Of a stretch of DNA of 64,000 nucleotides, positions 31,380 through 50,266 are shown piece by piece (the first letter of the stretch is position 1; the number at the start of each line of letters is the position of its first letter). The notes under the pieces were generated by a model, which was given only the letters and a program-made list of their open reading frames with translations, was not told the origin of the DNA and searched no databases. Source of the stretch: an uncultured Solirubrobacterales bacterium (lineage in GTDB: Bacteria > Actinomycetota > Thermoleophilia > Solirubrobacterales > Solirubrobacteraceae); assembly GCA_963832315.1 (NCBI GenBank), contig CAWHTT010000009.1, positions 14,110 through 78,109 of the forward strand. Direction: 5' to 3'. Position numbers and translations under genes: made by a program.

Positions 31380-31397
31380 CACCTGGGGGCGAGGAAC

Positions 31398-31429
31398 GTT
31401 GAAGGCGGTCCACCCGGGCCGCCTTCAAC
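31398..31429 (+). terminator. intercistronic hairpin between glpK and glpA (attenuator/terminator candidate)
   Basis: GTTGAAGGCGG (31398..31408) pairs perfectly with CCGCCTTCAAC (31419..31429) across a 10-nt loop. No U-tract follows. Confidence 0.3.
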
Positions 31430-31445
31430 GGGATAGGCTGACACC

Positions 31446-33026: not shown

Positions 33027-34298
33027 GAGGCGAGCTGCACTACGACGCGGTCGTGATCGGCGCCGGTACCGCGGGCCTCGTCGCGGGCGCGCGGCTGGCC
33101 GAGGGCGGCGCGCGCGTGTGCGTGCTGTCCAAGGGCATCGGCTCGACGCACCTCGCGCCCGGGACGATCGACGTCCTCGGTTATGCGCCCGGGCGCGTGT
33201 CCTCGCCGCGGGCCGCGCTCGAGGAGTTCGCCGCCGCTCGGCCCGATCACCCGTACGCGCTGCTCGGCGTCGACGCGGTGGCCGAGGCGGTGCGCTGGTT
33301 CTCCGAGCGTGTCGCCGACGGGCCGCTCTCCGGGTATCGGTACGTCGGCGATCTCGAGCGCAACATCTTGCTGCCGACGGCGGTCGGCGCGCTCCGCCCG
33401 TCGGCGCTGGTGCCCGAGACGATGGCCGCCGGCGACGCGTCCTCCGGGCTCGGCCATGTGTGCGTAGTCGGCACGCGCACGCTGCGCGATTTCCACGCCT
33501 CTCTGTGCGCGGCCAACCTCGGCCGAGCCGGCGTCGGCGCGCGGTCGGTCGAGGTCGAGATCGAGGTCGATCGAGCCGACCAGAACGCGCTCGGGCTGGC
33601 GCGGCGGTTCGACGATCCCGCCTGGCGCGCGGCGTTCGCCGCCCGGCTGGCCTTGAAACTGCAGGCGGACGAGCGCGTCGGGCTGCCCGCGATGCTCGGG
33701 ATCCGCGATCCGCACGCCGTGTGGTCCGATCTCGAGCACCGTCTCGGCCGCCCCGTGTTCGAGATCCCGACGCTGCCGCCGTCGGTTCCCGGGATGCGCG
33801 TGTACGAGATTCTCCGCTCGGCGCTGCGCCGCGCCGGCGGACGGCTCGTGCTCGGCGCCGAGGTCGTGTCGTGCGAGCGCGACGGCTCGCGGGTGACGTC
33901 GGTGGCGACGGCGTCGGCCGGTCACGACGGCCCGCTACGCGGCCCCTTGGTTCGTGCTCGCCGCGGGCGGATTCGGGTCGGGGGCGATCGAGCTCGACTC
34001 ACGCTGGGCCACGCACGAGCGCGTGCTCGGGCTGCCGTTGCGCGGCCTCCCGGCGGCGGACGAGCCGCGCTTCGTCGGCGACTACCTGGCCGAGCAGCCG
34101 ATGGCCCGGGTCGGGATCGCGGTCGACGCGGAATTGCGCGCCGAGGGTGCGGAGAACGTGCTGGTGGCGGGCGCGGCGCTCCCGGGCGCGGTGCCGTGGC
34201 GCGAGGGATCGGGCGAGGGGATCGCGCTGGCCAGCGGCTCCCACGCCGCCGAGATGGTGTTGGCGGGGGCCGGCGCTCCCGCGGGAGCGGCAGCATGA
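33023..34298 (+). pseudogene. glpB: anaerobic glycerol-3-phosphate dehydrogenase subunit B, split by a 1-nt frameshift (possible assembly error)
   Basis: The GlpB-like N-terminal 300 aa (YDAVVIGAGTAGLVAG..) are in the frame of GTG 33023. The C-terminus (YAAPWFVLAAGGFGSG..) is in the +1 frame, ending at TGA 34298. The switch is near CCC 33931..33933. Confidence 0.8.
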
Positions 34299-34314
34299 GC
34301 GCGGGAGCGACGGC

Positions 34315-35548
34315 ATGAGCGACCACAACGTCCTCGAAGAGCTCATGCGGGGGTCGCTCGACCACTGCGTCAAGTGCACGATCTGCGAGACGCAGTGCCC
34401 GGTGTCGAACGTGACGCCGCTGTTCCCGGGGCCGAAGTACGCCGGCCCGCAGGCCGAGCGCTACCGGATCGCACGACGAGCCCTCGGTCGACGCGTCGGT
34501 CGACTATTGCTCGGGGTGCGGGATCTGCTCGATGGCCTGCCCGCAGGGGGTGAAGATCGCCGAGATCAACTCGCAGGCGCGAAACAAGCTCAAGCAGCAG
34601 AAGGGCATCCCGATCCGCGACCGGATCATCACCCGGCCGACTTGGCTCGGACGGGCGGGGACGCCGGTGGCGCCACTGGCCAACTTCACGATCGATTTTC
34701 GGCCGGCCCGGATCCTCGGCGAGAAGCTGCTGAAGATTCATCGCGACGCGGCCGCGCCGGACTTTGCGGGCCGGCGCTTCTCGCGGTGGGCGCGCAAGCA
34801 CCCTAGTCCCGCCACCGGCCGCAAGATCGTCTACTTCCACGGCTGCGGGACCGAGTACTACGAGCCGTGGGAGGGCGAGAAGGTCGTGGCGATCCTGGAG
34901 CACAACGGGTTCGAGGTCGTCGTGCCCAAGCAGGACTGCTGCGGTCTGCCGCTGCAATCGAGCGGCCTGTTCGACGACGCACGCAAGGTCGTGCTGAGAC
35001 TGGCGCGCGCGCTCGTGCCGTACGTCCGCGACGACCCGGACACGATCATCGTCGGCAACGCCACAAGCTGCACGCTGATGCTCAAGCGCGAGGCGCGCGA
35101 GATCCTCTCGCTCGAGGACGACCCAGATCTGAAGCTCGTGTCCGAGCGCACCTACGACATCTGCGAGCTGCTGCTCGAGCTGCACGATCGCGGCGAGCTC
35201 AAGACCGACTTCAAGGCGGTCAACGAACACATCTTCTACCACGCGCCCTGCCAGCAGCAGGGCCACTGGATCGGCAAGCCGGCGCTCGAATTGTTCGCGC
35301 TGATCCCCGGCCTCGAAGTCACCGAGGGGAACGCCCGGTGCTGCGGGATCGCCGGGACGTACGGATTGAAGGCCGAGAAATACGACATCTCGATGGCGGT
35401 CGGGGCTGACCTGTTCGGCCAGGTCAAGGCGTCGGGCGCCGGCGAGGTCGCGTGCGACAGCGAAACCTGTCGCTGGCAGATCTCCCACGCCACCGGCCAC
35501 AAGTCGGTGCACCCGATCGACTACCTGCACCGCGCGTACGGACTCTGA
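34315..35548 (+). pseudogene. glpC: anaerobic glycerol-3-phosphate dehydrogenase subunit C, split by a 1-nt frameshift (possible assembly error)
   Basis: The first ferredoxin motif CVKCTICETQCP is in the frame of ATG 34315. The second, CSGCGICSMACP, and the two CCG domains are in the +1 frame (track ORF 34532..35548). The switch is at about 34466..34471. Confidence 0.85.
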
Positions 35549-35549
35549 C

Positions 35550-38060
35550 GTGGTCGGGATCGTCATCGTCTCGCACAGCGAGACGCTGGCCCAGGGCGTG
35601 GTGAGCCTGGCCCGCGAGATGGGCGGCGAGAAGCTTGCGATTTTGGCCGCGGGAGGCACATCAGAGCCCGGCGTCCTGGGAACCGACGCCGAACGCGTGC
35701 GGGCCGCGATCGAGGAGGCCATGTCCGACGACGGCGTGCTCGTGCTGATGGACCTCGGCAGCGCCCTGATGAGCGCCGAGTTCGCCGTCGAGCTACTCGA
35801 GGATCCGCCCGGGCGCGTGCTGCTCAGCGAGGCGCCGCTCGTCGAGGGCGCGGTGGCGGCCGCCGCGGCCGCCAACGGTGGCGCGTCGCTCGACGAGGTC
35901 GCGACCGAGGCGCGCGGTGCCCTGGCTATGAAGTCCTCGCAGCTCGGCGTCGCCGGCGACGAGCCCGCCGAGCCGCCGGACGAGCCCCCGCCCCCGGCTG
36001 CCGATGCCGAGGCGTCGCTCCTCGTGCGCAACGCGATTGGGCTGCACGCTCGGCCGGCGGCGCGGTTCGTCGAGACCGTGCGCGGCTTCGACGCCGAGGT
36101 CTTCGTGGCGAAGGCCGGCGGCGGCTCGCCGGTGAAGGCCACGAGCCTGACCAACGTGGTGGCGCTCGGGGCTCGGTTTGGCGACACGCTGGTGGTCAGC
36201 GCGTCGGGGGCACAGGCGCGCGAGGTCGTCGCGGCCCTGTCGGCGCTGGCCGAAGAGGGGTTCGGCGATGGCGTGGCTAGCTCGCCACCGCCACCGCCAC
36301 GGCCATCGCCGGGGCCACCCGCCCCCGGGGCGGCGCGGCCACGGACACCAACCCTGACCACGATACCGGCGTCACCGGACGAACCGAGCGGGGTGCTGCG
36401 CGGGGTGGCGGCGTCGGCGGGAGTCGTGGGAGGGCCGGCGCATCATCTGCACGGAGAGTTCGCGCCGCCGCCCGACCATCCGGCGGGCGATCGGGAGCGC
36501 GAGCGTCTGGTTGAGGCGATCGAGGAGGCGAAGCGCGCGATCGAACAGGACCGCGAGACGGTCGCGGCGCGCGCCGGCCAGGCCGAGGCGGCAATCTTCG
36601 ACGCCCATCTGGTCCTGCTCGACGACGAGGCGCTCCTCGAGCCGGCGGAGCGCGCGATCGAATCCGGCGCGACTGCCGAGCGCGCGTTCTACGACGCGGC
36701 CGCCGAGGTCGCCGGCCGTTACCGCGCGCTCGAGGAGCCGCTCTTGCAGGAGCGCGCCACCGACGTGCTCGACGTGGGGCGCCGCGTGGTGGGCGCGCTC
36801 AGCGGTGAGCCCGATCACGGTGGCCACGAGGGCATCGTCATCGCCGGCGAGCTCACGCCTGCCGATGCGGCCGCGCTCGACCCCGCCGTCGTCACCGGGA
36901 TCGCCACCGCGCACGGCACCGCGACCGCCCACGCGGCGATCCTCGCCCGCGCGCTCGGGCTGCCGGCGGTGGTCGGACTGGGGGACTCCGTGCTCGGGAT
37001 ACCCGAGGGCGCCACCGTGCTGCTCGACGGCGACGAAGGAACCGTTCACCTCGACCCGCCGGAAGACGTCCTGCGCGAGGCGACCGAGCGGCGTGAGCGT
37101 GCCGAGGAGCGACGGCGTGCCGCGCACGCGCGGGCGCACGAAACCGGCGCCACCAAGGACGGCACCCGGATCGAGGTGTTCGCCAACCTGGGCTCGGTCG
37201 AGGACGCGACGCGCGCGGTCGAACTCGGCGCCGAGGGCGTCGGTCTCCTGCGCACCGAGTTCCTGTTCCTCGACCGCGCCGAGCTGCCCGGAGAGGAGGA
37301 GCAGGCTGAGACCCTGCGAGAGATCGCCCGCGCCCTCGACGGGCGGCCGCTCGTCGTGCGCACGCTCGACGCCGGCGCCGACAAGCCTCTGCCGGCGCTG
37401 CCCATGCCGCCCGAGGCCAACCCGTTCCTCGGTGTGCGCGGGATCCGGCTCACGCTCGAGCGGGGCGACGTGCTCGCCACCCAGCTGCGCGCGATCCTGC
37501 GTGTCGCCGCCGAGCACCCGATCAAGGTGATGCTCCCGATGGTCGCCACGCTCGGCGAGATCGAAGCCGCTCGGGCCGCCCTCGATCAGGCCCGCGCCGA
37601 CACCGGGATCGACGCCCCGCTCGAGTTCGGGATCATGGTCGAGGTCCCGTCGGCTGCGCTGACCGCCGCTCGCTTGGCCGAGCACGTCGACTTCTTCTCG
37701 CTCGGCACGAACGACCTGACTCAGTACACGATGGCCGCCGAACGGGGCGACGAGCGCCTCGCCCCGCTGCTCACCGGACCGCAGCCGGCCGTGCTGCGTC
37801 TGGTTCAGGCGACGGTCGCCGGCGCGCGAGCCCACGACCGCTGGGTCGGGGTGTGCGGCGAGCTGGCCGGCGACCCGCCGACCGCGGTGCTGTTGGCCGG
37901 GCTGGGCGTGACCGAGCTGAGCATGGCCCCGGCGCTCGTGCCGGAGGTCAAGGAAGCGCTGCGCGGCGTCACGCTCGCGCAGGCCCAGGCGGCGGCGCGT
38001 CAGGCGCTCGAGGCCGACAGCGCGGCCGCGGCTCGCGCGCTCGGCGCCGCTTTGTTGTGA
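35550..38060 (+). CDS. dhaM: multidomain PTS phosphoryl donor: DhaM (EIIA-Man-like) - HPr - full-length Enzyme I fusion
   Basis: VGIVIVSHSETLAQG (DhaM His), GLHARPAARFV (HPr His), TATAHAAILARALGLP (EI His), and a PEP-binding C-terminal barrel with GTNDLTQY. Confidence 0.85.
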   Translation: MVGIVIVSHSETLAQGVVSLAREMGGEKLAILAAGGTSEPGVLGTDAERVRAAIEEAMSDDGVLVLMDLGSALMSAEFAVELLEDPPGRVLLSEAPLVEGAVAAAAAANGGASLDEVATEARGALAMKSSQLGVAGDEPAEPPDEPPPPAADAEASLLVRNAIGLHARPAARFVETVRGFDAEVFVAKAGGGSPVKATSLTNVVALGARFGDTLVVSASGAQAREVVAALSALAEEGFGDGVASSPPPPPRPSPGPPAPGAARPRTPTLTTIPASPDEPSGVLRGVAASAGVVGGPAHHLHGEFAPPPDHPAGDRERERLVEAIEEAKRAIEQDRETVAARAGQAEAAIFDAHLVLLDDEALLEPAERAIESGATAERAFYDAAAEVAGRYRALEEPLLQERATDVLDVGRRVVGALSGEPDHGGHEGIVIAGELTPADAAALDPAVVTGIATAHGTATAHAAILARALGLPAVVGLGDSVLGIPEGATVLLDGDEGTVHLDPPEDVLREATERRERAEERRRAAHARAHETGATKDGTRIEVFANLGSVEDATRAVELGAEGVGLLRTEFLFLDRAELPGEEEQAETLREIARALDGRPLVVRTLDAGADKPLPALPMPPEANPFLGVRGIRLTLERGDVLATQLRAILRVAAEHPIKVMLPMVATLGEIEAARAALDQARADTGIDAPLEFGIMVEVPSAALTAARLAEHVDFFSLGTNDLTQYTMAAERGDERLAPLLTGPQPAVLRLVQATVAGARAHDRWVGVCGELAGDPPTAVLLAGLGVTELSMAPALVPEVKEALRGVTLAQAQAAARQALEADSAAAARALGAALL

Positions 38061-38077
38061 GATACGCTCATGCCCAA

Positions 38078-38635
38078 GTGGAAGCGGCGCCGTCCAGCTC
38101 GTTGCGCTCCTCGAGGGTGCTCGCGGCCGGGACCGGCCTGCGCGTGGCCGCCTGTCCGGCGGTGCTGGCGCTCGTCCTGAACGCCTCCTACACCCCCGCC
38201 GCGATCGTCTTCGTGCTTGCGGCGGCCACCGACTGGCTGGACGGGCGCCTGGCCAGGCGCTGGGGAGTGACCACCCGGCTGGGCGCGTTCCTCGACACGA
38301 CGGCCGACAAGCTGCTGGTGAGCACCGCGCTGATCGCACTGGTCTCGGTGCACCGCGCGTCACCCTGGGTGGCGCTGGTCATCATCGCCCGCGAGTTCAC
38401 GATCCTGGGGCTACGCGCCGCGGTCGAATCGGGCGGACGGCGGTTCGAGACTTCGATGCTCGGCAAGTGGAAGGCCACCGTGCAGTTCGTGGCGATCACG
38501 CTGGCGATCCTGCGCCCCGATGTGTTGATCGGCGACGCCTACCTCGATCAGTGGGCGATGGTGATCGCCGCCCTGGTCACCGCCTGGTCGGGCATCGACT
38601 ACATCGTCCAGTTCGCCGCCGCACTGCGCGAATAG
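38078..38635 (+). CDS. pgsA: CDP-alcohol phosphatidyltransferase (phosphatidylglycerophosphate synthase-like)
   Basis: DWLDGRLARRWGVTTRLGAFLDTTADK matches D-x2-DG-x2-AR-x8-G-x3-D-x3-D. The start is uncertain (GTG 38078). Confidence 0.7.
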   Translation: MEAAPSSSLRSSRVLAAGTGLRVAACPAVLALVLNASYTPAAIVFVLAAATDWLDGRLARRWGVTTRLGAFLDTTADKLLVSTALIALVSVHRASPWVALVIIAREFTILGLRAAVESGGRRFETSMLGKWKATVQFVAITLAILRPDVLIGDAYLDQWAMVIAALVTAWSGIDYIVQFAAALRE

Positions 38636-39616
38636 GTGGCTCGGGTGTTTGTCACCGGGGGGACGGGGGTGATCGGCGGTGCCCTCGTGCGCCGGCTGCT
38701 CGAGCGAGGCGACGAGGTCGTCGGCCTGGCCCGCTCCGACGCGGCCGCCGCCAAGCTCGAGTCGCTCGGTGCCCGGGTCGTCCGCGGCGAGGGCTACGAC
38801 GTCGATGCGCTCGCCCGGGGCATGGACGGGTGCGCGTTCGCGTACAACGTGGCCGGCGTCAACGCGCTGTGCGTGGAGGATCCGCGCCCGATGGAGCGCC
38901 TGAACGTGGACGGAGCGGCCGCCGCCGTCCGCGCCGCCGCCCGCGCCGGCATAACCCGGTTGGTGCACACCTCCTCGGCGGCGACGATCGGTGAGGCGCC
39001 GGGGACGGTCGGCACCGAGCACACCGTGCATCGCGGCTGGTACCTCTCGACCTACGAGCGCACGAAGACCGAGGGCGAGCGCGCCGCGCTGGCCGCCGCA
39101 CGCGAGGTCGGGCAGGATCTCGTGCTGGTCAATCCCTCCTCGGTGCAGGGCCCGGGCCGCGCCGGTGGCACCGGACGGTTCATGCTCGCCTTCCTCGACG
39201 GCCGGCTCAAGGTGTTCGTCCCCACGGTGGTCAGCCTCGTCGACATCGACGACTGCGTCACCGGCCACCTGCTGGCGGGCGAGCGCGGGGCGGCCGGCGA
39301 GCGCTATCTGCTCAACGGGATGACACTCCCGATCGACCAGGCGCTCGCGCTGGCCGCGGAGGTGGCGGGCGTCGAACGCCGCCCTCGGCTGGTCCCGCGG
39401 CGCGTGGCCACGATCGCCGCGGGCCTGCTCGAGCGCGGCTTCCGGCTGGCCGGGCGCCACCCACCGGTGTGCCGGGAGATGGTCCGCACGCTGCTGCACG
39501 GACATCGCTACGACGGCTCGCGGGCCGAGCGCGAACTCGGGCTGCGCTACACCGAGCCGCGCGAGACGATCCGCAAGACCGTGGCCTGGGCTCGCGCGGA
39601 GGGCCTGATCGGCTGA
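38636..39616 (+). CDS. NAD-dependent epimerase/dehydratase
   Basis: VFVTGGTGVIGGALVRRL Rossmann motif and YERTK catalytic motif. GTG start directly after the pgsA stop. Confidence 0.8.
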   Translation: MARVFVTGGTGVIGGALVRRLLERGDEVVGLARSDAAAAKLESLGARVVRGEGYDVDALARGMDGCAFAYNVAGVNALCVEDPRPMERLNVDGAAAAVRAAARAGITRLVHTSSAATIGEAPGTVGTEHTVHRGWYLSTYERTKTEGERAALAAAREVGQDLVLVNPSSVQGPGRAGGTGRFMLAFLDGRLKVFVPTVVSLVDIDDCVTGHLLAGERGAAGERYLLNGMTLPIDQALALAAEVAGVERRPRLVPRRVATIAAGLLERGFRLAGRHPPVCREMVRTLLHGHRYDGSRAERELGLRYTEPRETIRKTVAWARAEGLIG

Positions 39617-39620
39617 GCGC

Positions 39621-39815
39621 TCAGAACAGGCTCTGCGAGTTCAGGTGCACTTCGGTCAGCGCCGCCAGATGCAGGTCGTCGATCTTCGCCACGGCCTCGC
39701 TCACGCAATCTCTGATGATCACGTAGCTGATCGTGCCCCGCCGCAACCCATAGTTCTGCACGGTCCGCCGATCGACGATCTCGTACAGGTGAACCCCATC
39801 CGTGAGGTACGACAT
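39621..39815 (-). CDS. small hypothetical protein (64 aa), paralogue A
   Basis: MSYLTDGVHLYEIVDRRTVQNYGLRRGTISYVIIRDCVSEAVAKIDDLHLAALTEV.., with GGAGA 8 nt upstream of ATG 39815. 44 of 57 aligned residues are identical to the neighbour. Confidence 0.55.
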   Translation of the reverse strand: MSYLTDGVHLYEIVDRRTVQNYGLRRGTISYVIIRDCVSEAVAKIDDLHLAALTEVHLNSQSLF

Positions 39816-39920
39816 TCCCATTTCTCCGCGCTTTCGGCCGCGTGTTCGCGATCCGTACTGCAAGTGCGATTCTGCACGAGATAAACGGGACCAGCCTATG
39901 CCAATTTGCGCAATTTGCGA

Positions 39921-40094
39921 TCAGCGAACTTCGGACAGCGCGGCCAGTTGCAGATCGTCGATCGTGGCCGTGGCCTCGCTGACGCAATCGCGAATGATCA
40001 CGTAGCGGATGGTTCCGCGTCGCAGCCCGTAGTTCTCCACGGTGCGCTGCGAGGCGACCTCGTACAGATGAGTACCGTCGGTCAGATACCTCAT
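39921..40094 (-). CDS. small hypothetical protein (57 aa), paralogue B, absent from the ORF track
   Basis: Hand translation of the minus strand gives MRYLTDGTHLYEVASQRTVENYGLRRGTIRYVIIRDCVSEATATIDDLQLAALSEVR then a stop. Conservation with paralogue A at protein level supports coding. Confidence 0.5.
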   Translation of the reverse strand: MRYLTDGTHLYEVASQRTVENYGLRRGTIRYVIIRDCVSEATATIDDLQLAALSEVR

Positions 40095-40181
40095 AGGAGT
40101 CGTCGCTCTTCTCTATCTGGGTTGCGGCAAGCCTTGCCAAAGCTACACAACCGTAGTTCCCTACCTTCGGAGACGTTTTAC

Positions 40182-40212
40182 CCTGCAAGAGCGCGCTTTA
40201 CGCGCTTGCAGG
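40182..40212 (-). terminator. hairpin downstream of the pqq operon (weak terminator candidate)
   Basis: CCTGCAAGAGCGCG / CGCGCTTGCAGG imperfect inverted repeat with a 5-nt loop, 57 nt after the stop of the R2-like gene. No clear U-tract. Confidence 0.25.
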
Positions 40213-40268: not shown

Positions 40269-41117
40269 CTAAGCGACCGGCAACGCGTCGGCCAGGCCCG
40301 CGATCGACAGCCGCCGGCGGCACAGGTCCACCGCGTACTTCCGGGTCGCCTCGGGCACCGCGTCCCCCCAGGCGCCGGCCGCTTCGGTGGCGCGGTTCAG
40401 CACGTCGCTGAGGAGGACCTCAGGGTCCTTGGCCTCGGTCAGGCACCGCACGCCGAAGCCGACGTGCCAACGCTCATCGCGCTCCACGTTCTCCACGCCC
40501 TTGCGTATCCCGGGGAGGGCGTCGTCCTCCAGGTCGTCGAGCAGCGCGCGCTGACCGGCGGTGAACACGGCTCCCTCGAGCACCATGTGGTAGAGCCGGA
40601 CGCCGTCCAGGATGCCGGTGCGCTTTGCCGTGATCTCGGCGGCCATCGCGGGCAGGCGCTCTTCGAAGAGTTCGAGGAACGCGGCCGGGACGTGCTCCCG
40701 CGCCGCGGCGAGGCGGTCGGCCGGGGCATCTCCCGGCAGACCCAGCACCTCGGCGGCGATGCGGTCGAAGAACAGGGCGTGACGGTCCTCGTCGCGGCGC
40801 TGGAGGAAGAAGATCCACATCATCATCGTGTCGACGTGCTCGGCGCGGTCCGCGAACGGTGTGAGGTGCTCGGCGACCGAGTCTTCGGCGACGCGGAAGC
40901 CGGCGAGCAGCGTGGTCAGGCGGTGGCGACGCTCCTCGGAGAGCTCAGGCCAGGCTTTGGCGTCGGGGGCGAGATCGATGGCGTTCGGATCCCACTGGAG
41001 CTTGGCGACGATCTGGGAGTACGTCGACAGCCGCGGGAAGATCGACAGCTGCGAGCGGTCAGCGAGGGGAACGCTGAGGCCGCCCGCCCCGGCGGGGATG
41101 TACGGGTCTTGCGCCAT
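40269..41117 (-). CDS. ferritin-like di-iron carboxylate protein related to ribonucleotide reductase R2 (not a canonical R2)
   Basis: Four-helix ligand pattern: AED/AEH, EDRH, LEGAV, ERWH (E, ExxH, E, ExxH). Phe stands where class I R2 has the radical Tyr (EDRHALFF). ATG 41117 overlaps the pqqE stop (ATGA). Confidence 0.75.
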   Translation of the reverse strand: MAQDPYIPAGAGGLSVPLADRSQLSIFPRLSTYSQIVAKLQWDPNAIDLAPDAKAWPELSEERRHRLTTLLAGFRVAEDSVAEHLTPFADRAEHVDTMMMWIFFLQRRDEDRHALFFDRIAAEVLGLPGDAPADRLAAAREHVPAAFLELFEERLPAMAAEITAKRTGILDGVRLYHMVLEGAVFTAGQRALLDDLEDDALPGIRKGVENVERDERWHVGFGVRCLTEAKDPEVLLSDVLNRATEAAGAWGDAVPEATRKYAVDLCRRRLSIAGLADALPVA

Positions 41118-42253
41118 CAGGAAATAGTTTGCCGAATCGGCGGCCGCGTCCCTGGGTCGGAGCCGCGCGGTCGCTTCACCGTGCGATAGACGAACTCATC
41201 CGTCTGCGCCGACTCTCGCATCGACACGATTTGCTCATGATGTGGCGAGAACTGGCACACCGGATCGGTGGCCGCCGCGGTGCCGGTCAGCCGGAGCGCC
41301 TGGCAACGGCAGCCGCCCCAATCCACCTCCTGGCGCCCGACCGGGCACGAGCGGCACGGCTCCTGCATCCAGTCCGTGCCGCGAAACCGGGCGAACGCGT
41401 CGGACTCGTTCCAGATCCACTCGAGCGGATGCTCACGGACATTGGCGAACTCGAGTCCCGGGATCGTCGACGCCGCCTGGCACGGCAGCACGTCGCCGTT
41501 AGGCGCCACCACCATGGCCGTCTGGCCCCAGCCGCCCATGCACGGCTTGGGGAGATCCTCGTAGTAGTCGGGAAGCACCCAGAGGACGTCGACCTTGGGG
41601 CCGACGCGTTCACGGAAGCGCTTGACCGCATCCTCGCCGCGCCGCAGCTGTTCCCAGGTCGGCATCAGCGCCTCCTGGTTGAGGACCGCCCAGCCGTAGT
41701 ACTGGGTGTTGGCGAGCTCGAGCCGTTGTGCCCCGAGATCGAGGGTCAGGTCGAGCAGCTCCTCTATGCGGTCGAGGTTCTGGCGGTGCAGAACACAGTT
41801 GATGGTCAGTGGGAAGTCGAGCTCCCGTGCCGCACGCGCGGCCGCGATCTTCTTCTCGAACGATCGGTTGCCCGCGATGCGGTCGTTCTCCTCCGGGTTC
41901 GGGCTCTGGATCGAGACCTGAACGTGGTCGAGTCCGGCCGCCTTCAGCTGCTCCGCACGCTCCCGTGTGAACAGCGTGCCGGCGGTGATCAGCGACGAGT
42001 AGAGCCCCGCGTCGCGCGCTCCGGCACACAGCTCGGCGAGATCGCGCCGGAGCATCGGCTCGCCGCCGGTCAGGGCGAGCTGGAGGACGCCGAGCCCACG
42101 CGCCTGACCGAAGGTGCGTATCCAGTCGCCGGTCTCGAGCTCATCGCGGTACTTCGCATGCCCGATGTCGGTCGGGTTGGAGCAGTACGGGCAGTGCAGC
42201 GGGCACTGATATGACAACTCGGCGATCAGGGTGAAAGGCCTAAGCGCCGGCAT
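41117..42253 (-). CDS. pqqE: PQQ biosynthesis radical SAM/SPASM enzyme PqqE
   Basis: CPLHCPYCSNP radical SAM motif, GGEPMLR, and C-terminal SPASM cysteines (CMGGWG.., CQA.., CRSCP..CRCQ). The start is chosen at MPALRPFTLIAEL (42253). Confidence 0.9.
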   Translation of the reverse strand: MPALRPFTLIAELSYQCPLHCPYCSNPTDIGHAKYRDELETGDWIRTFGQARGLGVLQLALTGGEPMLRRDLAELCAGARDAGLYSSLITAGTLFTRERAEQLKAAGLDHVQVSIQSPNPEENDRIAGNRSFEKKIAAARAARELDFPLTINCVLHRQNLDRIEELLDLTLDLGAQRLELANTQYYGWAVLNQEALMPTWEQLRRGEDAVKRFRERVGPKVDVLWVLPDYYEDLPKPCMGGWGQTAMVVAPNGDVLPCQAASTIPGLEFANVREHPLEWIWNESDAFARFRGTDWMQEPCRSCPVGRQEVDWGGCRCQALRLTGTAAATDPVCQFSPHHEQIVSMRESAQTDEFVYRTVKRPRGSDPGTRPPIRQTIS

Positions 42254-42503
42254 CGACCAGGAGTCCTCTCTCCGCCATCCCGTCGACCAGGTCGCGAACG
42301 TCCTCGCCGAGGTCAGCACCTTCGTACCGTTCGGCCAGGACGCCGACGATGTCATCCACAGAGCGCTCTCCGTCGCACAGCTCGAGCACCTCGGCCGCGC
42401 TCGGGTTCAAGCGCACCGCCCCCTCGGGGACCAGGAGCAGATGCTCCTCGCGGACCTCGTCATAGCGCAGCCGCGCGCCGGTGACGAGGCGGGGACGAGT
42501 CAC
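42240..42503 (-). CDS. pqqD: PQQ biosynthesis peptide chaperone PqqD
   Basis: LLLVPEGAVRLNPSAAEVLELCDGERSVDDIV is typical of PqqD. GTG 42503 overlaps the pqqC stop (GTGA). Confidence 0.85.
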   Translation of the reverse strand: MTRPRLVTGARLRYDEVREEHLLLVPEGAVRLNPSAAEVLELCDGERSVDDIVGVLAERYEGADLGEDVRDLVDGMAERGLLVDAGA

Positions 42504-43231
42504 TCGCCCTCCGCGTGGGGCTGCGAATCGCCGCGCTCGATCGCATCGAGCTGCGCCCACAGCACCTCGGTCTTGAATCGCAAGGCGGCCACCGCAGCGT
42601 CCTGCTGCTCGCGCGTGCGGCAGCGATCGACCACGAGCTCGAGCGCATAGTCGGCGTCACGGGGGGCCTTGACGAGCCGCGTGCGGAAGTACTCGAGGCC
42701 GGCGGGATCGATCCAGTCGTAATGGCGCTCGAGCGCCTCGAGGCGGACACGGATCGCGGCCGGGCCGAACAGCTCCGTGAGCGAAGACGCCACCGCCTCG
42801 ATCCATGGCTTCTGGCGGGCGAAGTTCACATATGCGTCGACCGCGTAGCGCACGCCGGGAAGGACGCCGCGCTCTGACTCGAGCTCCTCGCGCGAGACGC
42901 CGAGCGCCTCGCCGAGGCGCAGCCACGACTCGATCCCGCCCGTTCGGGCCGCGGTTCCATCGTGATCGATGATCCGCTGGATCCATTCGCGCCGGACTTC
43001 GACCTCGGGGCAGTTGGACATGATCGCCGCGTCCTTGAGCGGAATGCACTTCTGGTAGTAGAACCGGTTCGTCACCCAACGCCGGAGTTCGTCGCGTGTC
43101 AACTCACCACCGTCCATGCGGCGGTGGAAGGGATGCAGATGGTGATAACGCGACCCCTGGGCGCGCAACTCGGCGATGAATTCCTCGGGCGGGGCTGGTC
43201 GCTCCGCTGGCTGGGTGACTGTCTCGATCAC
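42500..43231 (-). CDS. pqqC: pyrroloquinoline-quinone synthase PqqC
   Basis: YHHLHPFHRRMDGGELTRDELRRWVTNRFYYQ and the rest of the PqqC/TenA-like fold sequence. Confidence 0.9.
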   Translation of the reverse strand: MIETVTQPAERPAPPEEFIAELRAQGSRYHHLHPFHRRMDGGELTRDELRRWVTNRFYYQKCIPLKDAAIMSNCPEVEVRREWIQRIIDHDGTAARTGGIESWLRLGEALGVSREELESERGVLPGVRYAVDAYVNFARQKPWIEAVASSLTELFGPAAIRVRLEALERHYDWIDPAGLEYFRTRLVKAPRDADYALELVVDRCRTREQQDAAVAALRFKTEVLWAQLDAIERGDSQPHAEGE

Positions 43232-44124
43232 AGCTCGACCTCGAGTCCATCGTAAGCGACCTCAACCCCGGCGCGCAAAACGGCCGCCCGCTCAGGTGAG
43301 TCTTCGAGCAGGATGGGGTTGGTGTTGTTGATGTGCACGAGTGCCTTCCGCGGTCGCTCGAGTCCGGCCAGTGCCTCGAGCGTCCCACCCGGGCCTGACA
43401 GCGGCAGATGCCCCATGTCGCGTGCGCTGCGCGCGGAGATGCCGAGGCGGGCAAGCTCGTCGTCGCGCCAGAAGGTGCCGTCGAGCAGCACGAGGTCGCT
43501 GTCGGCGAGCCGTGCCAGCACGGCGTCGTCCAGGCGGGCGAGCCCGGGGATATAGGTGAGCACGCCGCCGCCGGCGGCGTCCCGGAACACGAACCCGCTC
43601 GCCTCGAGTTCGACGCCCGACCCGTCGAGATAACGCGGCGCGTCACCGCCCACGTCGAACCGCTCGACCGTCAGGCTCGAGCCGTCGAGCGGGCAGGCCC
43701 GCTCCGGCTCGAGCGTGTGCCACTCCAGGCCGCAGAAACGCTCGAGGATCGAGAGCACCGGGTAACCCTGCCGGAGCGCAAGCTCGACGCCGTCGCCGCC
43801 GTATACGCGCACGGGCGCCGCGGACTCGCGCAGGAGGAGCAGTCCGGCGGTGTGGTCGATCTCGGCGTCGGTCAGGAGCACGCCGGCGATCGGCGCAGAT
43901 CGCACGCCCTCGGCCGGCGGCCCGGTGAGCGCCTCGAGTTGCAGGCGCGCGTCGGGCGACGCGTTCACGAGAAACCACGGACCGTCTCCGCCGCGGATCG
44001 CGAGCGAAGACTGCGTCCGGGGTCGTGCCCGAACGCCTGCTCGGGCCGCCTCACAGGTTGGACAGCGGCAATTCCACTGCGGGAACCCGCCCCCGGCGGC
44101 CGAGCCGAGAATCCGGACGCGCAC
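43228..44124 (-). CDS. pqqB: PQQ biosynthesis protein PqqB (metallo-beta-lactamase fold)
   Basis: MRVRILGSAAGGGFPQWNCRCPTC N-terminus is characteristic of PqqB. GTGA overlap with pqqC. Confidence 0.9.
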   Translation of the reverse strand: MRVRILGSAAGGGFPQWNCRCPTCEAARAGVRARPRTQSSLAIRGGDGPWFLVNASPDARLQLEALTGPPAEGVRSAPIAGVLLTDAEIDHTAGLLLLRESAAPVRVYGGDGVELALRQGYPVLSILERFCGLEWHTLEPERACPLDGSSLTVERFDVGGDAPRYLDGSGVELEASGFVFRDAAGGGVLTYIPGLARLDDAVLARLADSDLVLLDGTFWRDDELARLGISARSARDMGHLPLSGPGGTLEALAGLERPRKALVHINNTNPILLEDSPERAAVLRAGVEVAYDGLEVEL

Positions 44125-44185: not shown

Positions 44186-44260
44186 CTACCGGTGATACAG
44201 GTAGGAGGTGACCTCCGAGCACAGCTCGATGAACTCAAACTTCGGCTTGATCCAGGTCAT
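44186..44260 (-). CDS. pqqA: PQQ precursor peptide PqqA (24 aa), absent from the ORF track
   Basis: Minus-strand hand translation gives MTWIKPKFEFIELCSEVTSYLYHR then TAG. It carries the W-x-K-P and E-V-T-x-Y (Glu-x3-Tyr) signature. GAGGAGAGAGG lies 6 nt upstream of the ATG, 61 nt upstream of pqqB. Confidence 0.85.
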   Translation of the reverse strand: MTWIKPKFEFIELCSEVTSYLYHR

Positions 44261-44343: not shown

Positions 44344-45747
44344 ATGGTCATCGAGGTAACCGCCACCGACGCGGACGCGGTGAGGGCCGACCTCGTCGCG
44401 GTCCCGTCCGGACCGCGGGCTTCCGCACTCGGGGCGCCGGAGCGTGCGTCGGCGGACGCCGACCCGGTCGCGATCGTGTACCGGGCTTCCGGTCAACCCC
44501 CGCTAGCGGTGGTGGCGGTCGAGCCGGATATCGAGGGGCTCCGGACCGCCGCGGCGCGGGCGGTGCGCGCGTGCCGAAGTGGCGGAATTGTCGCGTGGGA
44601 GCTTGATTTCGCGCTGTCTGTGGCAATCGAGGAGCAGGTGCGCGCGTTGGCCGAGGGTGCGGTCATCGGCGGCTACGACGGCAGGCGTTGGCGCAGCGGC
44701 GAGCCACCGCGCGGCGTCGAGCGGTTCGTGATCTGTGGGTGCCCTGGCGAGCTCGCGCCGGTGGCCGAGCGCGCGGCGCTCGTGGCGCGTTGGACGAACG
44801 TCGCCCGCGAGCTTGTCGACGCGCCGGCGAACGTGATGTCGCCCGCGGGACTATCCGATCGGGTAGTGAAGTTTGCCCACCTGGACAGTGAAATTGTCGA
44901 CCCGGATAGGGCGGGCCTGGGTGCACTCGCCGCGGTCGGCGGGAGTAGCCCGATCCCGCCGCGTCTCATCGTGCTTCGGCACGCGCCGCCCGGCGCGCCG
45001 GGCGCGCCGCGGCTCGCGCTCGTCGGTAAGGCCGTCACGTTTGACACCGGCGGTTACTTCCTGAAGCCCCAGCACGACATCGTCCGTCAGAAGGCGGACA
45101 TGGCGGGCGGCGCGGCCGTCGCGGCGGCCCTCGGCGCGATCGCCGAGCTTGGGCTACCGCTGTCGGTCACGGGGGTCGTGCCGGCGTGCGAGAACATGCT
45201 GAGCGGGAGCGCGATCCGGCCCACCGACGTGATCACGACCGCGGCCGGTCTGACCGTCGAGGTCAACAATCCCGACGCCGAAGGCCGTCTGATCCTGGCC
45301 GACGCGCTGTGGTACGCGCGCCGGGACGGCGCGACCCACGTCGTCGACCTGGCCACGCTCACCGGCGCGATGCGCGCCGGCATGGGCGACTTGTATGCGG
45401 GAGTGTTCGCGCCCGACGAGGCGTGGCGCGAGGCGGTCGTGCAGGCCGGCAACGCGAGCGGGGACCTGGCCTGGCCGTGGCCGCTTCATCCGCGCTACCG
45501 GCCGCTGATCGACTCGACCGTGGCCGATCTGCGCAACACCGCGGGCAAGGGCTTCGGCTTCCCGATCGTCGCCGCGACCTTCCTTCAGCAGTTCGCGGGC
45601 GAAGGGCCGTGGGCGCACGTCGACATGCTGGGGCCGGCGCTGCTCGACGACGATCGCGGCGACGCCTTCGGCCGCGGGGCGTCCGGCTACGGCGTGCGCA
45701 TGCTGGTCGAGCTGGCCACGCGACTGAGCGTTACGCTGACCCAATGA
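44344..45747 (+). CDS. pepA: M17 leucyl aminopeptidase
   Basis: VGKAVTFDTGGYFLKP, DMAGGAAV and NPDAEGRLILADAL (NTDAEGRL-type) metal-ligand motifs. Confidence 0.85.
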   Translation: MVIEVTATDADAVRADLVAVPSGPRASALGAPERASADADPVAIVYRASGQPPLAVVAVEPDIEGLRTAAARAVRACRSGGIVAWELDFALSVAIEEQVRALAEGAVIGGYDGRRWRSGEPPRGVERFVICGCPGELAPVAERAALVARWTNVARELVDAPANVMSPAGLSDRVVKFAHLDSEIVDPDRAGLGALAAVGGSSPIPPRLIVLRHAPPGAPGAPRLALVGKAVTFDTGGYFLKPQHDIVRQKADMAGGAAVAAALGAIAELGLPLSVTGVVPACENMLSGSAIRPTDVITTAAGLTVEVNNPDAEGRLILADALWYARRDGATHVVDLATLTGAMRAGMGDLYAGVFAPDEAWREAVVQAGNASGDLAWPWPLHPRYRPLIDSTVADLRNTAGKGFGFPIVAATFLQQFAGEGPWAHVDMLGPALLDDDRGDAFGRGASGYGVRMLVELATRLSVTLTQ

Positions 45748-46355
45748 ACCACGGAGACGGCGATCGGCGCGCGGTGGCGCCGTCTACCCCGGGACGGGTC
45801 ATCGACACTGCGAAGATCGACCTCGCCGCCGCCGAGCGGGCCGCGCGTGATCTGCTGCAGGCGATCGGCGCCGACCCCGACGCTCCCGACCTGCTCGAGA
45901 CGCCCCGCCGCGTGGTCGCCTCGTTCGCGGAGCTCATAACCCCCGCCGAATTCGGCGCGACGGTGTTCCCGAACGAGGGCTACGACGAGCTCGTGCTGGT
46001 GCGCGACATCTCGTTTCAGACCCTGTGCATGCACCACCTGCTGCCGTTCCACGGCGTCGCCCACGTCGCCTACCTGCCGGGGGAGAGCATCATCGGGCTG
46101 TCGAAGCTCGCGCGCGTGGTCGAGTTCTTCGCCCGCGATTTGCAGCTCCAGGAGCGGATGACCGTCCAGATCGCCGACTGGCTCGAGCAGGAACTCGCGC
46201 CGCGCGGCGTAGGGGTGGTGCTGAGCGCCGAGCACATGTGCATGACGATTCGCGGCGTGCGCAAGCCGGGGGCGCGGACGATCACCTCGGCGTTGCGGGG
46301 CTCGCTTCGCTCCGACGCACGCACGCGCCAGGAGTTCTTCAGCCTTGTCGGCTGA
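45744..46355 (+). CDS. folE: GTP cyclohydrolase I (type 1)
   Basis: ETPRRVV, CMHHLLPFHGVAHVAY, GLSKLARVV and QLQERMT motifs. ATGA overlap with pepA. Confidence 0.9.
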   Translation: MNHGDGDRRAVAPSTPGRVIDTAKIDLAAAERAARDLLQAIGADPDAPDLLETPRRVVASFAELITPAEFGATVFPNEGYDELVLVRDISFQTLCMHHLLPFHGVAHVAYLPGESIIGLSKLARVVEFFARDLQLQERMTVQIADWLEQELAPRGVGVVLSAEHMCMTIRGVRKPGARTITSALRGSLRSDARTRQEFFSLVG

Positions 46356-46935
46356 CGCCGGTGAGCCGTATCCGCTGATCGAGACCGTGGTGACCACGAC
46401 CGGTTCAGACGGGGTGGTCAACTGCGCGGCGATGGGGGTGCGGTGGGGGGAGGAAGAGCTCGTGTTCTGGCCGTTCGACGCGACGCGGACGCTGCGCAAT
46501 CTGCGTGTGCACGGCGAGGCCGTCGTCCACCTGACCGATGACGTGCTGCTGTTCGTGCAGGCTGCCCTCGGCCATCCGCACCCTGCGATGCGTCCCGCCA
46601 GCACGGTCGCCGGCTCGGTGATCGAGGATGCGAACGCCTGGCGCGAGGTTGTCGTGACCGAGATCACGCCCGGTGGCGACGAGCTGCCGCGGTCGATGGT
46701 GCGTGCGCGTGTCGTGGCCTCGGGTACCGGCACGCCTCGGCAACCGCTCGGCCTGTGCCGCGCCCGGCACGCCGCCGTCGAAGCATCGATCCTCGCGTCG
46801 CGGCTGAAGTGGCTGGGCGCCGAGCACGTGTCGGCCGAGTTCGCCCGGCTACAGGAGCTGGTCGACAAGACGGCCGGATCCCGCGAGCGCGCCGCGATGG
46901 ACTACGTACGACGCCACGTCGCAGAGCGCACGTGA
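46345..46935 (+). CDS. DUF447-family protein (flavin-reductase-like fold; linked to H4MPT clusters)
   Basis: LIETVVTTTGSDGVVNCAAMGV N-terminus resembles DUF447 proteins of methanogens and methylotrophs. TTG start overlaps the folE end. Confidence 0.65.
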   Translation: MSADAGEPYPLIETVVTTTGSDGVVNCAAMGVRWGEEELVFWPFDATRTLRNLRVHGEAVVHLTDDVLLFVQAALGHPHPAMRPASTVAGSVIEDANAWREVVVTEITPGGDELPRSMVRARVVASGTGTPRQPLGLCRARHAAVEASILASRLKWLGAEHVSAEFARLQELVDKTAGSRERAAMDYVRRHVAERT

Positions 46936-47897
46936 CCGAGGTCGTGATCAGCGCGCCGGCCAGGCTGCATTTCGGGATGCTCGATCCGACCGGAGTGGGC
47001 GCGCGCCGCTTCGGAGGCTGTGGCGTGGCCGTGGAGTCGCCCCGGGTGGTTGTCGCGGTCAGGCCACGGTCCGGCGAGGAGGTTGTGGCGGGTGGGTCGC
47101 AGGCGGAGCGCGCGGGCGAATTCGCCAGGCGGGCCCGGGACGCATTCGGGCACCGGGGCGGCGTCGAGGTGGAGGTGCGCGAGGCGATCCCGCCGCACGT
47201 AGGACTTGGATCGGGCACCAAGCTCGGCCTGGCGGTCGCGTTCGGGGTGGCCGAACTGGCGGGCGTCTCGGCCGGGCCGGAGAAGCTCGCGGAGGCGAGC
47301 GGTCGGGGGGCGCGCTCGAGCGTGGGCGCCTGGACGTTCGCCGAGCCGGGGCTTGTGGTCGAGGCCGGCGTGCGCGAGGGCGGCGCGATCAGCCCGCTGG
47401 TCGCTCGGCACCCGATGCCCGCTCGGTGGCGATGCGTGCTCGCGCTGCCGCGCGACGCGGAGGGGCTGTCCGGCGATGCCGAGGAGCGACTCTTCGATCA
47501 GTTGCACGACCGGTCGGCGGGCGAGCCGAGCGTCTCGCGGCTGCTGCTGACCGCCCTGCTGCCGGGGCTGGTGACCGGGGACATCGACGAGTTCGGCGGC
47601 GCGCTGTCAGAGATCCAGCGCGAGATCGGAGCGATGTTCGCGGACCAGCAGGGCGGCGTGTTCCATCCGCGCGCGGCTCCTGTGGTCGAGGAGTTGCATG
47701 CGCTCGGCGTCGGGGCGGTCGGGCAGAGCTCGTGGGGTCCGGCGGTCTACGGGATCGTGGACGGCCCGGAGCGCGCCGCGGACGTCGCCGATCGGCTGCG
47801 CGCCGCCGTCGGGCCGGGCACCGATGTCCGCGTGGTCGACTTCGATCGCACGGGCGCGCGGGTGGCGCGTCATGGCTCGGGCCAGGCGGCGGCGTGA
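46932..47897 (+). CDS. mptG: beta-ribofuranosylaminobenzene 5'-phosphate synthase (GHMP-kinase fold)
   Basis: VVISAPARLHFGMLD start and the IPPHVGLGSGTKLGLAVA GHMP motif. GTGA overlap with the previous gene. Confidence 0.75.
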   Translation: MTEVVISAPARLHFGMLDPTGVGARRFGGCGVAVESPRVVVAVRPRSGEEVVAGGSQAERAGEFARRARDAFGHRGGVEVEVREAIPPHVGLGSGTKLGLAVAFGVAELAGVSAGPEKLAEASGRGARSSVGAWTFAEPGLVVEAGVREGGAISPLVARHPMPARWRCVLALPRDAEGLSGDAEERLFDQLHDRSAGEPSVSRLLLTALLPGLVTGDIDEFGGALSEIQREIGAMFADQQGGVFHPRAAPVVEELHALGVGAVGQSSWGPAVYGIVDGPERAADVADRLRAAVGPGTDVRVVDFDRTGARVARHGSGQAAA

Positions 47898-48637
47898 GGC
47901 TGCTGGTCAGTGTCGTGTCGGCTTCCGAGGCGACGCGCGCCGTCGCCGGTGGAGCGGACATCATCGACGTCAAGGATCCGGGCGAGGGCGCGCTCGGTGC
48001 GCCGGCGCCGCGCGTGGTGTCCGAGGTCGTGGAGGTCGTGGGCGGCGCCGCTCCGGTCAGCGTCGCGCTCGGCGATCTGCCGGATCTCCCGCACACCGCG
48101 GCACTCGCCGCGCGTGGCGCCGCGGTGTGCGGCGCCGCGTACGTCAAGGTCGGGCTGCGCGGGGTGCGCGAGCTCGACCGTGCGGTGGCGCTGATGAGCG
48201 CGGTCGCCGACGCGGTCGGGGATCAGGTTGCGGTGATCGCGGCCGCGTACGCAGACGCCCGCGCGCTCGACCCGCCGGCACTCGAGCCCGCGTGGCTGCC
48301 GGCGTTGGTGGAGCGGACGGGGATCGCCGGCGCGCTCGTCGATACGTTCGTCAAGGATGGGCGCGGGTTGTATGGCTGGCTGTCCGAGGCCGAGCTGACC
48401 GAGTTGGTATCGGGGACGAGGGCGGCCGGTGGGACGTTTGGCGTGGCCGGGCAGCTGCGGCTCGGCGAGCTGTGCCGCGTGCCGGCCGACGTGGTCGGCG
48501 TGCGGTCTGCCGTTTGTCGCGGGAGCGATCGAACGGCTCACCTGGAGCAGGCTCTCGTGGCGGCCGCGGTCGCCGAACTAGGCACCGTTGGCGCTGAAGC
48601 TACGTATGTGTTAGCTGGATCGCCAAAGTCCGGGTGA
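47894..48637 (+). CDS. mfnB: (5-formylfuran-3-yl)methyl phosphate synthase-like protein (DUF556/MfnB family)
   Basis: RLLVSVVSASEATRAVAGGADIIDVKDPGEGALGA N-terminus is typical of the DUF556 family. GTGA overlap with mptG. Confidence 0.7.
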   Translation: MRLLVSVVSASEATRAVAGGADIIDVKDPGEGALGAPAPRVVSEVVEVVGGAAPVSVALGDLPDLPHTAALAARGAAVCGAAYVKVGLRGVRELDRAVALMSAVADAVGDQVAVIAAAYADARALDPPALEPAWLPALVERTGIAGALVDTFVKDGRGLYGWLSEAELTELVSGTRAAGGTFGVAGQLRLGELCRVPADVVGVRSAVCRGSDRTAHLEQALVAAAVAELGTVGAEATYVLAGSPKSG

Positions 48638-50143: not shown

Positions 50144-50162
50144 CGCGCCATTGCATCACGGA

Positions 50163-50266
50163 TAACGCGTCACGCCACGATGATCCGGGCCGGCGTGACG
50201 GCTAATGCGTCTGGGAGACGCTTAACGCGTCACGCCCGTCGGCAAACCGCCTCGCGTGACGCGTTA
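50163..50266. promoter_or_regulatory. four copies of TAACGCGTCACGCC arranged as two inverted-repeat pairs with 60-bp period
   Basis: Direct copies at 50163..50176 and 50223..50236. Inverted copies at 50192..50205 (one mismatch) and 50253..50266. Lies directly upstream of the mfnF-like start (50143). Confidence 0.5.

Follow-up and report, generated by a model that had tools for sequence, protein, structure and literature searches.

We analyzed a 64-kb window (the whole stretch of 64,000 nucleotides considered here, from contig CAWHTT010000009.1 of an uncultured Solirubrobacterales bacterium), in which the pqqABCDE operon for the biosynthesis of pyrroloquinoline quinone (PQQ) is followed directly, on the same strand, by a gene encoding a di-metal carboxylate protein related to R2lox (referred to here as the R2-like protein). 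The association of this gene with the pqq genes is itself solid, and it recurs in Thermoleophilia and in a second clade within the class Actinomycetes. The protein belongs to a distinct, shorter sister clade of R2lox (with a core of ~250 aa) rather than being a bona fide R2lox, and it is not a subunit of ribonucleotide reductase (RNR). We tentatively propose, with somewhat less than even confidence, that it may act as a reductant-dependent, O2-activating oxidase that assists PQQ maturation alongside PqqB and PqqC.

The R2-like gene and the pqq operon

The pqqABCDE operon in the window is complete and lies on a single strand (Table 1), with PqqB, PqqC, PqqD, and PqqE all exceeding their NCBIfam equivalog thresholds. 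The short PqqA peptide contains a Glu-x3-Tyr pair, and pqqA is kept in 69 related loci. The open reading frame (ORF) of the R2-like protein was confirmed (282 aa, ATG start), and its GC content at third codon positions (0.91) is typical of genuine genes in this window of 71% GC. At its junction with pqqE the coding strand reads TGATG, in which the TGA stop codon (41119..41117) and the ATG start codon (41117..41115) share one base (41117). Because the stop and start codons overlap, the R2-like gene is predicted to be translationally coupled to pqqE. An earlier interpretation of this DNA made without database searches (hereafter the sequence-only reading) had placed a 4-base ATGA overlap here (41115..41119); its overlap and the coupling drawn from it stand, but the overlap is a single base. 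Its description of the gene as the sixth cistron after pqqABCDE also holds, and we infer from this arrangement that the gene is co-transcribed with the operon. The R2-like protein lacks a signal peptide and is therefore probably cytoplasmic, which fits the cytoplasmic synthesis of PQQ.

Relationship to R2lox and RNR

The protein carries the four ligand motifs that the sequence-only reading had recognized (A77-E78-D79, E110-D111-R112-H113, L180-E181-G182-A183-V184, and E215-R216-W217-H218), together with a Phe at the position of the RNR radical Tyr (Phe117, four residues past His113). That the product is an R2-like di-metal protein closest to R2lox, and not an RNR subunit, is borne out by sequence, curated family, and predicted fold; the sequence-only reading had named an R2lox-like protein as one option. 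No model exists in Pfam or NCBIfam for the ~250-aa clade to which the protein belongs. In a Pfam scan (E ≤0.01), PF00268 was the sole match (35.4 bits vs. a threshold of 33.6). This marginal match cannot separate R2lox from RNR, because R2lox proteins are routinely labelled as RNR small subunits (e.g., PDB entries 4hr0 and 3ee4). Among NCBIfam models, the five for R2lox ranked first, although the protein falls far below the cutoffs of all five (at least 194; the best, NF006200, scored 75.6 bits vs. a cutoff of 194), whereas the RNR beta models (NrdB/NrdF) gave no more than 24.9 bits vs. cutoffs of 237-310. The best sequence matches among solved structures are likewise R2lox proteins, namely those of Geobacillus, Sulfolobus, Saccharopolyspora, and M. 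tuberculosis (E 1e-12 to 1e-7), and RNR R2 structures match only at E 1e-3 or worse. An AlphaFold2 (AF2) model built from a 47-sequence alignment (pLDDT 88, pTM 0.87) gave the same picture in a Foldseek comparison with the PDB, in which ranks 1-34 are all R2lox (TM-scores 0.61-0.74), followed by RNR R2 of classes Ic and Ie.

The predicted metal ligands E78, E110/H113, E181, and E215/H218 align to E69, E102/H105, E167, and E202/H205 of G. kaustophilus R2loxI, and V81 and Y176 align to V72 and Y162, which form its ether cross-link. All six ligands and V81 are kept in 125 of the 125 sequences compared, Y176 in 124, and Phe117 in 123. The R2-like protein thus shares with R2lox the R2/ferritin fold, the Glu/ExxH/Glu/ExxH ligand set with Glu rather than Asp at site 1, the Phe at the radical-Tyr position, and the Val and Tyr of the cross-link. 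It differs in a sequence identity of just 18-23% (in the fold-search alignments), in a core of ~250 instead of ~300 aa, in having Phe or Leu for Ala171 and Trp217 for Arg, in its rubredoxin partner or fusion, and in a PQQ-island rather than a lipid context. Since the Ala that lines the R2lox tunnel is missing, we place the protein in a separate sister clade.

That the gene encodes a functional class I RNR small subunit (e.g., one similar to class Ic) whose large subunit is encoded elsewhere is highly improbable. The PF00268 score just above threshold and the label "ribonucleoside-diphosphate reductase beta chain", which public sequence databases attach to relatives, would suit such a role, and a Phe in place of the radical Tyr is found in class Ic R2 as well, so that this Phe alone is not decisive against RNR. 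However, the beta equivalog scores are far below threshold, R2lox ranks above RNR by both sequence and fold, and the core is only ~250 aa, with no conservation in the alignment beyond R268-R269-L270 and no conserved Tyr following it. The gene is also syntenic with pqq, its upstream neighbor in 54 of 80 relatives being pqqE and not an RNR gene, and no RNR large subunit is encoded within the 64-kb window, in which the four ORFs of at least 700 aa encode a kumamolisin-type protease, a FUSC protein, an MMPL protein, and a fusion of phosphotransferase system (PTS) EI, HPr, and EIIA. Identity as an RNR beta subunit was therefore rejected. The Mn/Fe class Ic small subunit NrdB of Chlamydia trachomatis resembles the R2-like protein in its R2 fold, in the Glu at the first ligand position, in the Phe replacing the radical Tyr, and in a Phe at the equivalent of R2lox Ala171 (PMC6399176). 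In contrast to NrdB, the R2-like protein has no conserved C-terminal tail for binding a large subunit, falls far below RNR thresholds, contains the R2lox cross-link residues, and is not linked to nrdA.

Conservation of the linkage in Thermoleophilia

A scan for the R2-like gene, with one genome per species, returned 80 loci, all from Thermoleophilia (Solirubrobacterales and Thermoleophilaceae), onto which the Pqq proteins of the window were mapped (with a neighborhood of 8 kb). The gene overlaps pqqE or follows it by no more than 125 nt in 54 of these loci, 10 of which have the 1-base overlap. Only mntP lies between the two genes in two loci, the R2-like gene is tail-to-tail with pqqE in six, and the pqq operon is 4-6 kb away in eight. 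Seven further loci have the gene next to or near genes for an MSMEG_3727-like protein and a PQQ-dependent dehydrogenase (PF23509, PF01011), and three (L042, L046, and L051) have no PQQ gene within 8 kb. In total, pqq genes are found within 8 kb in 70 of the 80 loci, and either pqq genes or the PQQ-dehydrogenase module in 77. As 54 of the 80 related loci show it, the adjacency of the R2-like gene and pqqE is not due to chance. Enrichment beside pqq genes, on which the sequence-only reading had let its proposal depend, was found here and again in the second clade, in Actinomycetes. As that reading had supposed, the association does not appear to have been described before, and we found no paper within the searchable literature that links R2lox or an R2-like protein (or RNR, or rubredoxin) with pqq or PQQ.

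A PQQ dehydrogenase gene is present within 8 kb in just 16 of the 80 loci and is absent from the 64-kb window, so the R2-like gene tracks pqq more than the dehydrogenase. In ~16 Thermoleophilia loci and in Actinomycetospora, the gene does not follow pqqE and instead adjoins a PQQ-dependent dehydrogenase gene or pqqA; therefore, synteny alone cannot tell PQQ synthesis from PQQ use. Downstream of the R2-like gene, 37 Thermoleophilia loci contain a Na/Ca exchanger gene.

Members beyond Thermoleophilia and their rubredoxin partner

The family is a modest one: a search of 1.8 billion representative proteins gave 57 clusters at E <1e-30, and its clades were outlined with a neighbor-joining tree and gene-context look-ups. 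In a plasmid collection the sole match was the known G. kaustophilus R2lox. A second pqq-linked clade occurs in the class Actinomycetes, with members ~45% identical to the window protein and always paired with a rubredoxin. The gene order is pqqE-rubredoxin-R2like in four of these loci (L084, L085, L099, and L100) and pqqA-rubredoxin-R2like in three (L082, L094, and L095), and in L103 the R2-like gene is upstream of the dehydrogenase module. For example, a metagenome-assembled genome labelled Jiangellaceae (L084) contains MSMEG_3727, dehydrogenase, pqqABCDE, rubredoxin, R2-like, and Na/Ca exchanger genes in this order, and contigs of Actinomycetospora (A. endophytica and Actinomycetospora sp.) have MSMEG_3727, dehydrogenase, pqqA, rubredoxin, and R2-like genes; Actinomycetospora was not among the best 120 matches in a search with PqqC.

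Rubredoxin is not only an adjoining gene. In one Thermoleophilia locus, a single ORF of 335 aa (L062:7788-8795, plus strand) consists of an N-terminal rubredoxin domain with two CxxC pairs fused to an R2-like domain. Because rubredoxin also accompanies members without pqq linkage (L083, L086, and L090), it is likely, from gene context, the reductant of the family as a whole. The members outside pqq islands have various neighbors, including a methyltransferase gene (L087), a sigma-factor gene (L088), desaturase and acyl-CoA dehydrogenase genes (L089), a paa cluster (L090), and an opp transporter (L091). In L083 and L086, the surrounding cluster is one of lipid metabolism and also encodes a second R2lox-like protein (300 aa), a rubredoxin, and a rubredoxin reductase (plus, in L086, a P450). 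The paired 250-aa and 300-aa R2lox-like proteins in these fatty-acid/beta-oxidation clusters (L083:10001-13154 and L086:9001-13513) may form a rubredoxin-dependent lipid oxidation system.

As a separate observation, the PQQ dehydrogenase gene in L084:3428-5594, L059:9000-11314, and L092:3538-5803 always comes after one for an MSMEG_3727-type protein of 150 aa. No signal peptide is recognizable in the L084 dehydrogenase, which contains a Cys-Cys pair and a D-Y-D motif, a signature of the lanthanide type. It would be unusual for a PQQ enzyme to be cytoplasmic and possibly lanthanide-dependent.

Proposed function

From the fold, ligands, cross-link residues, synteny, and rubredoxin partnership described above, a putative turnover, substrate, and reaction can be outlined. 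The cofactor of the R2-like protein is probably Mn/Fe or Fe/Fe, and its reduced metal site (E78, E110/H113, E181, and E215/H218) would react with O2. The electrons for turnover would come from rubredoxin, either as the product of the adjoining gene in the Actinomycetes clade or as the fused N-terminal domain in L062; in the present window, the metal site would have to be reduced by a donor other than a nearby rubredoxin. The protein might then oxidize or hydroxylate a PqqA-derived intermediate, auxiliary to PqqB and PqqC, and may raise or secure the output of PQQ without being indispensable for it. A putative hydroxylase role is plausible. There is functional precedent, in that Coq7/Clk-1 hydroxylase and alternative oxidase are four-helix-bundle di-metal carboxylate proteins that hydroxylate or oxidize quinone or quinol cofactors with O2. 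It is a precedent in function only, as these are membrane-associated proteins of other subfamilies, and neither has a detectable sequence relationship to the R2-like protein.

A bolder version, which we consider doubtful, is that the R2-like protein, fed by rubredoxin where present, would be an unrecognized O2-dependent enzyme of PQQ biogenesis in Actinomycetota that might hydroxylate the Tyr-derived ring, or carry out an aerobic side-chain C-H activation paralleling the radical S-adenosylmethionine (SAM) step. The C-H activation idea draws on the chemistry of R2lox, which itself joins a Tyr to an aliphatic side chain.

A number of observations weigh against a dedicated role in PQQ maturation. 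In a reverse sample of 80 metagenome loci retrieved with the L084 PqqE (71-100% identical, presumably Actinomycetes-type islands), 40 were informative in having at least 1.2 kb of sequence after pqqE, and only three of these carry rubredoxin and the R2-like gene; in most of the others, the gene after pqqE encodes MntP or a Na/Ca exchanger. The R2-like gene is also absent from the pqq clusters of two Streptomyces plasmids, one of which has the same dehydrogenase module. PQQ is made without the R2-like protein in Proteobacteria and in most Actinomycetes islands. Within Thermoleophilia, L042, L046, and L051 form one small nested subclade outside the PQQ island, near acyl-CoA synthetase and luciferase-like genes, and in some other loci the R2-like gene is lodged among tetrahydromethanopterin (H4MPT) and para-aminobenzoic acid genes or beside the dehydrogenase gene. 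Sister clades within the 250-aa family have lipid, paa, or desaturase genes, or unrelated ones, as neighbors, and the residues specific to the pqq-linked clades number only five (H84, M99, D118, P128, and R135), too few to interpret. Rubredoxin is absent from the 64-kb window, and none was found in the 8-kb neighborhoods of 79 of the 80 Thermoleophilia loci, the L062 fusion being the sole case.

The tunnel residue points in the same direction. Ala171 is conserved in R2lox and lines the ligand tunnel occupied by a fatty acid, RNR R2 proteins have Phe at this position, and an R2lox A171F mutant keeps the ligand out of the metal site (PMC6399176). The residue is Phe185 in the window protein, and Phe is likewise found in the Thermoleophilia members and in the majority of the remaining 250-aa clades; the Actinomycetes pqq clade has Leu, and Ala or Gly occurs only in the 300-aa R2lox-like outgroup. 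Because Phe185 replaces the tunnel Ala, and A171F excludes the ligand, the access of small molecules to the metals is uncertain. If Phe185 shuts the R2lox tunnel, a substrate must reach the metals by another route; alternatively, the protein may work through electron or radical transfer over a long range, in the way of RNR R2.

The accepted pathway, moreover, already supplies both a hydroxylase and an oxidase: hydroxylation is currently assigned to the Fe-dependent PqqB and the final oxidation to PqqC (PMC10906245). The premise of the sequence-only reading, that a hydroxylase is lacking from the pathway, is therefore outdated. No degeneration of PqqB accompanies the R2-like gene; its residue differences all follow phylogeny, and in the window PqqB is present and unchanged. 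PqqB belongs to the same operon and performs the O2-dependent hydroxylation that the sequence-only reading had proposed for the R2-like protein (PMC10906245), but it has an unrelated metallo-beta-lactamase fold and is found in all pqq operons, in contrast to the optional R2-like protein. Given that few of the informative Actinomycetes islands carry the gene, that PqqB is intact wherever it was compared, and that the pathway already has its hydroxylase and oxidase, the R2-like protein is an optional, lineage-specific PQQ accessory rather than a core enzyme that had been missing, and most PQQ producers do without the gene. Of the earlier proposal of an extra PQQ component, the strong linkage to pqq is retained, and the component becomes an optional one whose sister clades occur elsewhere.

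Alternative explanations

The R2-like protein might serve the use of PQQ instead of its synthesis, acting with rubredoxin as a soluble electron sink or oxidase for PQQH2 or for a cytoplasmic MSMEG_3727/PQQ-dehydrogenase module, or acting on the product of the dehydrogenase within a methylotrophy-like island. Di-iron carboxylate quinol oxidases that use O2 do exist (alternative oxidase and plastid terminal oxidase), as do rubredoxin-fed di-iron reductases of O2 and H2O2. The ~16 Thermoleophilia loci in which the gene abuts the MSMEG_3727-like protein and dehydrogenase genes and not pqqE, the Actinomycetospora order with no pqqBCDE between dehydrogenase-pqqA and the R2-like gene, and the position upstream of the dehydrogenase module in L103 would all suit such a role, and the apparent lack of a signal peptide in the L084 dehydrogenase means that its electron acceptor could be cytoplasmic. 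We nevertheless consider this role unlikely. In 64 of the 80 Thermoleophilia loci and throughout the 64-kb window, no dehydrogenase gene lies close by, whereas pqqE is adjacent. The R2-like gene is missing from most islands that encode the same dehydrogenase (70-90% identical), and the conserved Val and Tyr suggest two-electron chemistry as in R2lox, not a simple reduction of O2. Somewhat less likely still is a protective partner that scavenges O2 or H2O2, in the manner of rubrerythrin, beside the O2-sensitive radical-SAM enzyme PqqE and the H2O2-producing PqqC. The predicted translational coupling to pqqE, the rubredoxin partner or fusion, and the optional distribution suited to a non-essential helper are all compatible with this, and a substrate tunnel closed by Phe185 might admit small oxidants only (PMC6399176). 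However, the protein has no similarity to rubrerythrin, ferritin-like peroxidases, or flavodiiron proteins (PF00268 being its sole Pfam match at E ≤0.01), a general scavenger would not be expected to hold such specific synteny, and the invariant cross-link residues would be left unexplained.

There is also a slim chance that the protein is a lipid- or hydrocarbon-type oxidase similar to classical R2lox, with its place in the PQQ island a genomic accident kept by descent. R2lox co-purifies with hydroxy fatty acids, and its physiological function is still not known (PMC9314684); sister clades of the R2-like protein are found with acyl-CoA dehydrogenase, enoyl-CoA hydratase, P450, fatty-acid desaturase, and paa genes, and L042 and L051 lie near acyl-CoA synthetases. 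An accident of descent is difficult to reconcile with a linkage that survives at least five arrangements (after pqqE, convergent with pqqE, beside the dehydrogenase gene, after pqqA, and upstream of the island) and spans two bacterial classes at 45% protein identity, and Phe185 would block the position of the fatty acid in R2lox.

Small ORFs and neighboring genes

Besides the R2-like gene, two small ORFs follow the operon (Table 1). One or two copies are present in 42 Solirubrobacterales loci (e.g., L003:9029-9199 and L003:9306-9494), with substitutions mainly at third codon positions. Neither small ORF belongs to a known family or matches Pfam, NCBIfam, or the PDB, and the single-sequence AF2 model of small ORF 1 is poor (pLDDT 50). 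Small ORF 1 may be a seventh cistron; for both small ORFs, roles as additional cistrons, as partners, or as substrates of the system are conceivable. Two longer ORFs on the same strand were rejected as cistrons: one of 213 aa (39547..40188) is an artifact (its third-position GC is 0.52, and its homologs contain stop codons), and one of 364 aa (38411..39505) is an artifact antisense to a Pfam-supported epimerase gene. The conserved DNA beneath the 213-aa ORF yielded neither a tRNA nor a convincing Rfam match (RT-15 at 20.8 bits vs. 82); it consists of the two small protein-coding ORFs.

Table 1. Features of the R2-like/pqq region (positions in the 64-kb window).
Feature	Position	Strand	Evidence and remarks
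R2lox-like di-metal carboxylate protein, 282 aa	40269..41117	-	Sequence, profile, and AF2 fold matches
pqqE (radical SAM/SPASM)	41117..42355	-	TIGR02109, 497 bits (cutoff 381); likely true start ATG at 42253
pqqD (peptide chaperone)	42240..42560	-	TIGR03859, 78 bits (cutoff 46); start codon uncertain, family match starts at ORF residue 23
pqqC	42500..43231	-	TIGR02111, 330 bits (cutoff 240)
pqqB	43228..44124	-	TIGR02108, 358 bits (cutoff 245)
pqqA precursor peptide, 24 aa, MTWIKPKFEFIELCSEVTSYLYHR	44186..44260	-	Read directly from sequence
Small ORF 1, 57 aa, MRYLTDGTHLYEVASQRTVENYGLRRGTIRYVIIRDCVSEATATIDDLQLAALSEVR	39921..40094	-	175 nt downstream of the R2-like stop codon; third-position substitutions
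Small ORF 2, ~64 aa, tandem paralogue of small ORF 1	39621..39815	-	Start assigned by homology
M17 leucyl aminopeptidase	44344..45747	+	PF00883, 317 bits; divergent from pqqA
DUF447	46345..46935		
GHMP-kinase-like gene	46755..47897		
Hydantoinase_A	49142..50143		
RimK-type ATP-grasp gene	52082..53218		
Methenyl-H4MPT cyclohydrolase MCH	52978..54006		407 bits

On the other side of the operon, an M17 aminopeptidase gene is kept at the same position in 65 of 80 related loci. As no PqqF/G-type protease was seen, this enzyme may be a candidate peptidase for trimming the cross-linked PqqA. Further on, the operon borders H4MPT-linked C1 genes (46345..54006), which suggests a methylotrophy-like island in this Solirubrobacterales genome. 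The genes at 29871..38060, in contrast, are ordinary metabolic genes with no evident tie to the R2-like gene (an FGGY kinase, an FAD glycerol-3-phosphate-type dehydrogenase, a CCG-domain protein, and the EIIA-HPr-EI PTS fusion, i.e., glycerol/dihydroxyacetone genes).

In the Actinomycetes islands (L098-L177, e.g., L104:5986-6537 and L112:1851-2921; also L082:10834-11415), the gene after pqqE nearly always encodes a metal transporter (MntP, a Na/Ca exchanger, or GDT1). Since such transporters follow either pqqE or the R2-like gene, this suggests that the pqq island includes dedicated metal handling.

Implications

R2lox proteins remain without a settled substrate or function despite more than 15 years of structural and spectroscopic study (PMC9314684). 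The linkage described here provides the first defined pathway context for an R2lox-type enzyme, although any role in that pathway is putative. Finding an R2lox sister clade fixed within the well-understood five-enzyme PQQ pathway narrows the candidate substrates to a few known intermediates, namely the cross-linked PqqA, the excised Glu-Tyr species, AHQQ, and PQQ/PQQH2, and the adjoining or fused rubredoxin is a candidate physiological reductant, which makes the question of function testable. If the R2-like protein does prove to be an enzyme of PQQ biogenesis, this would give the first physiological substrate for an R2lox-type Mn/Fe cofactor. The present assignment also corrects the widespread mis-annotation of these proteins as RNR beta chains. 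For abundant soil Actinomycetota, it adds a conserved extra gene, and possibly one or two more small ORFs, to the pqq operon; PQQ synthesis in these bacteria has hardly been examined, and the R2-like gene could matter for the engineering of aerobic PQQ production.

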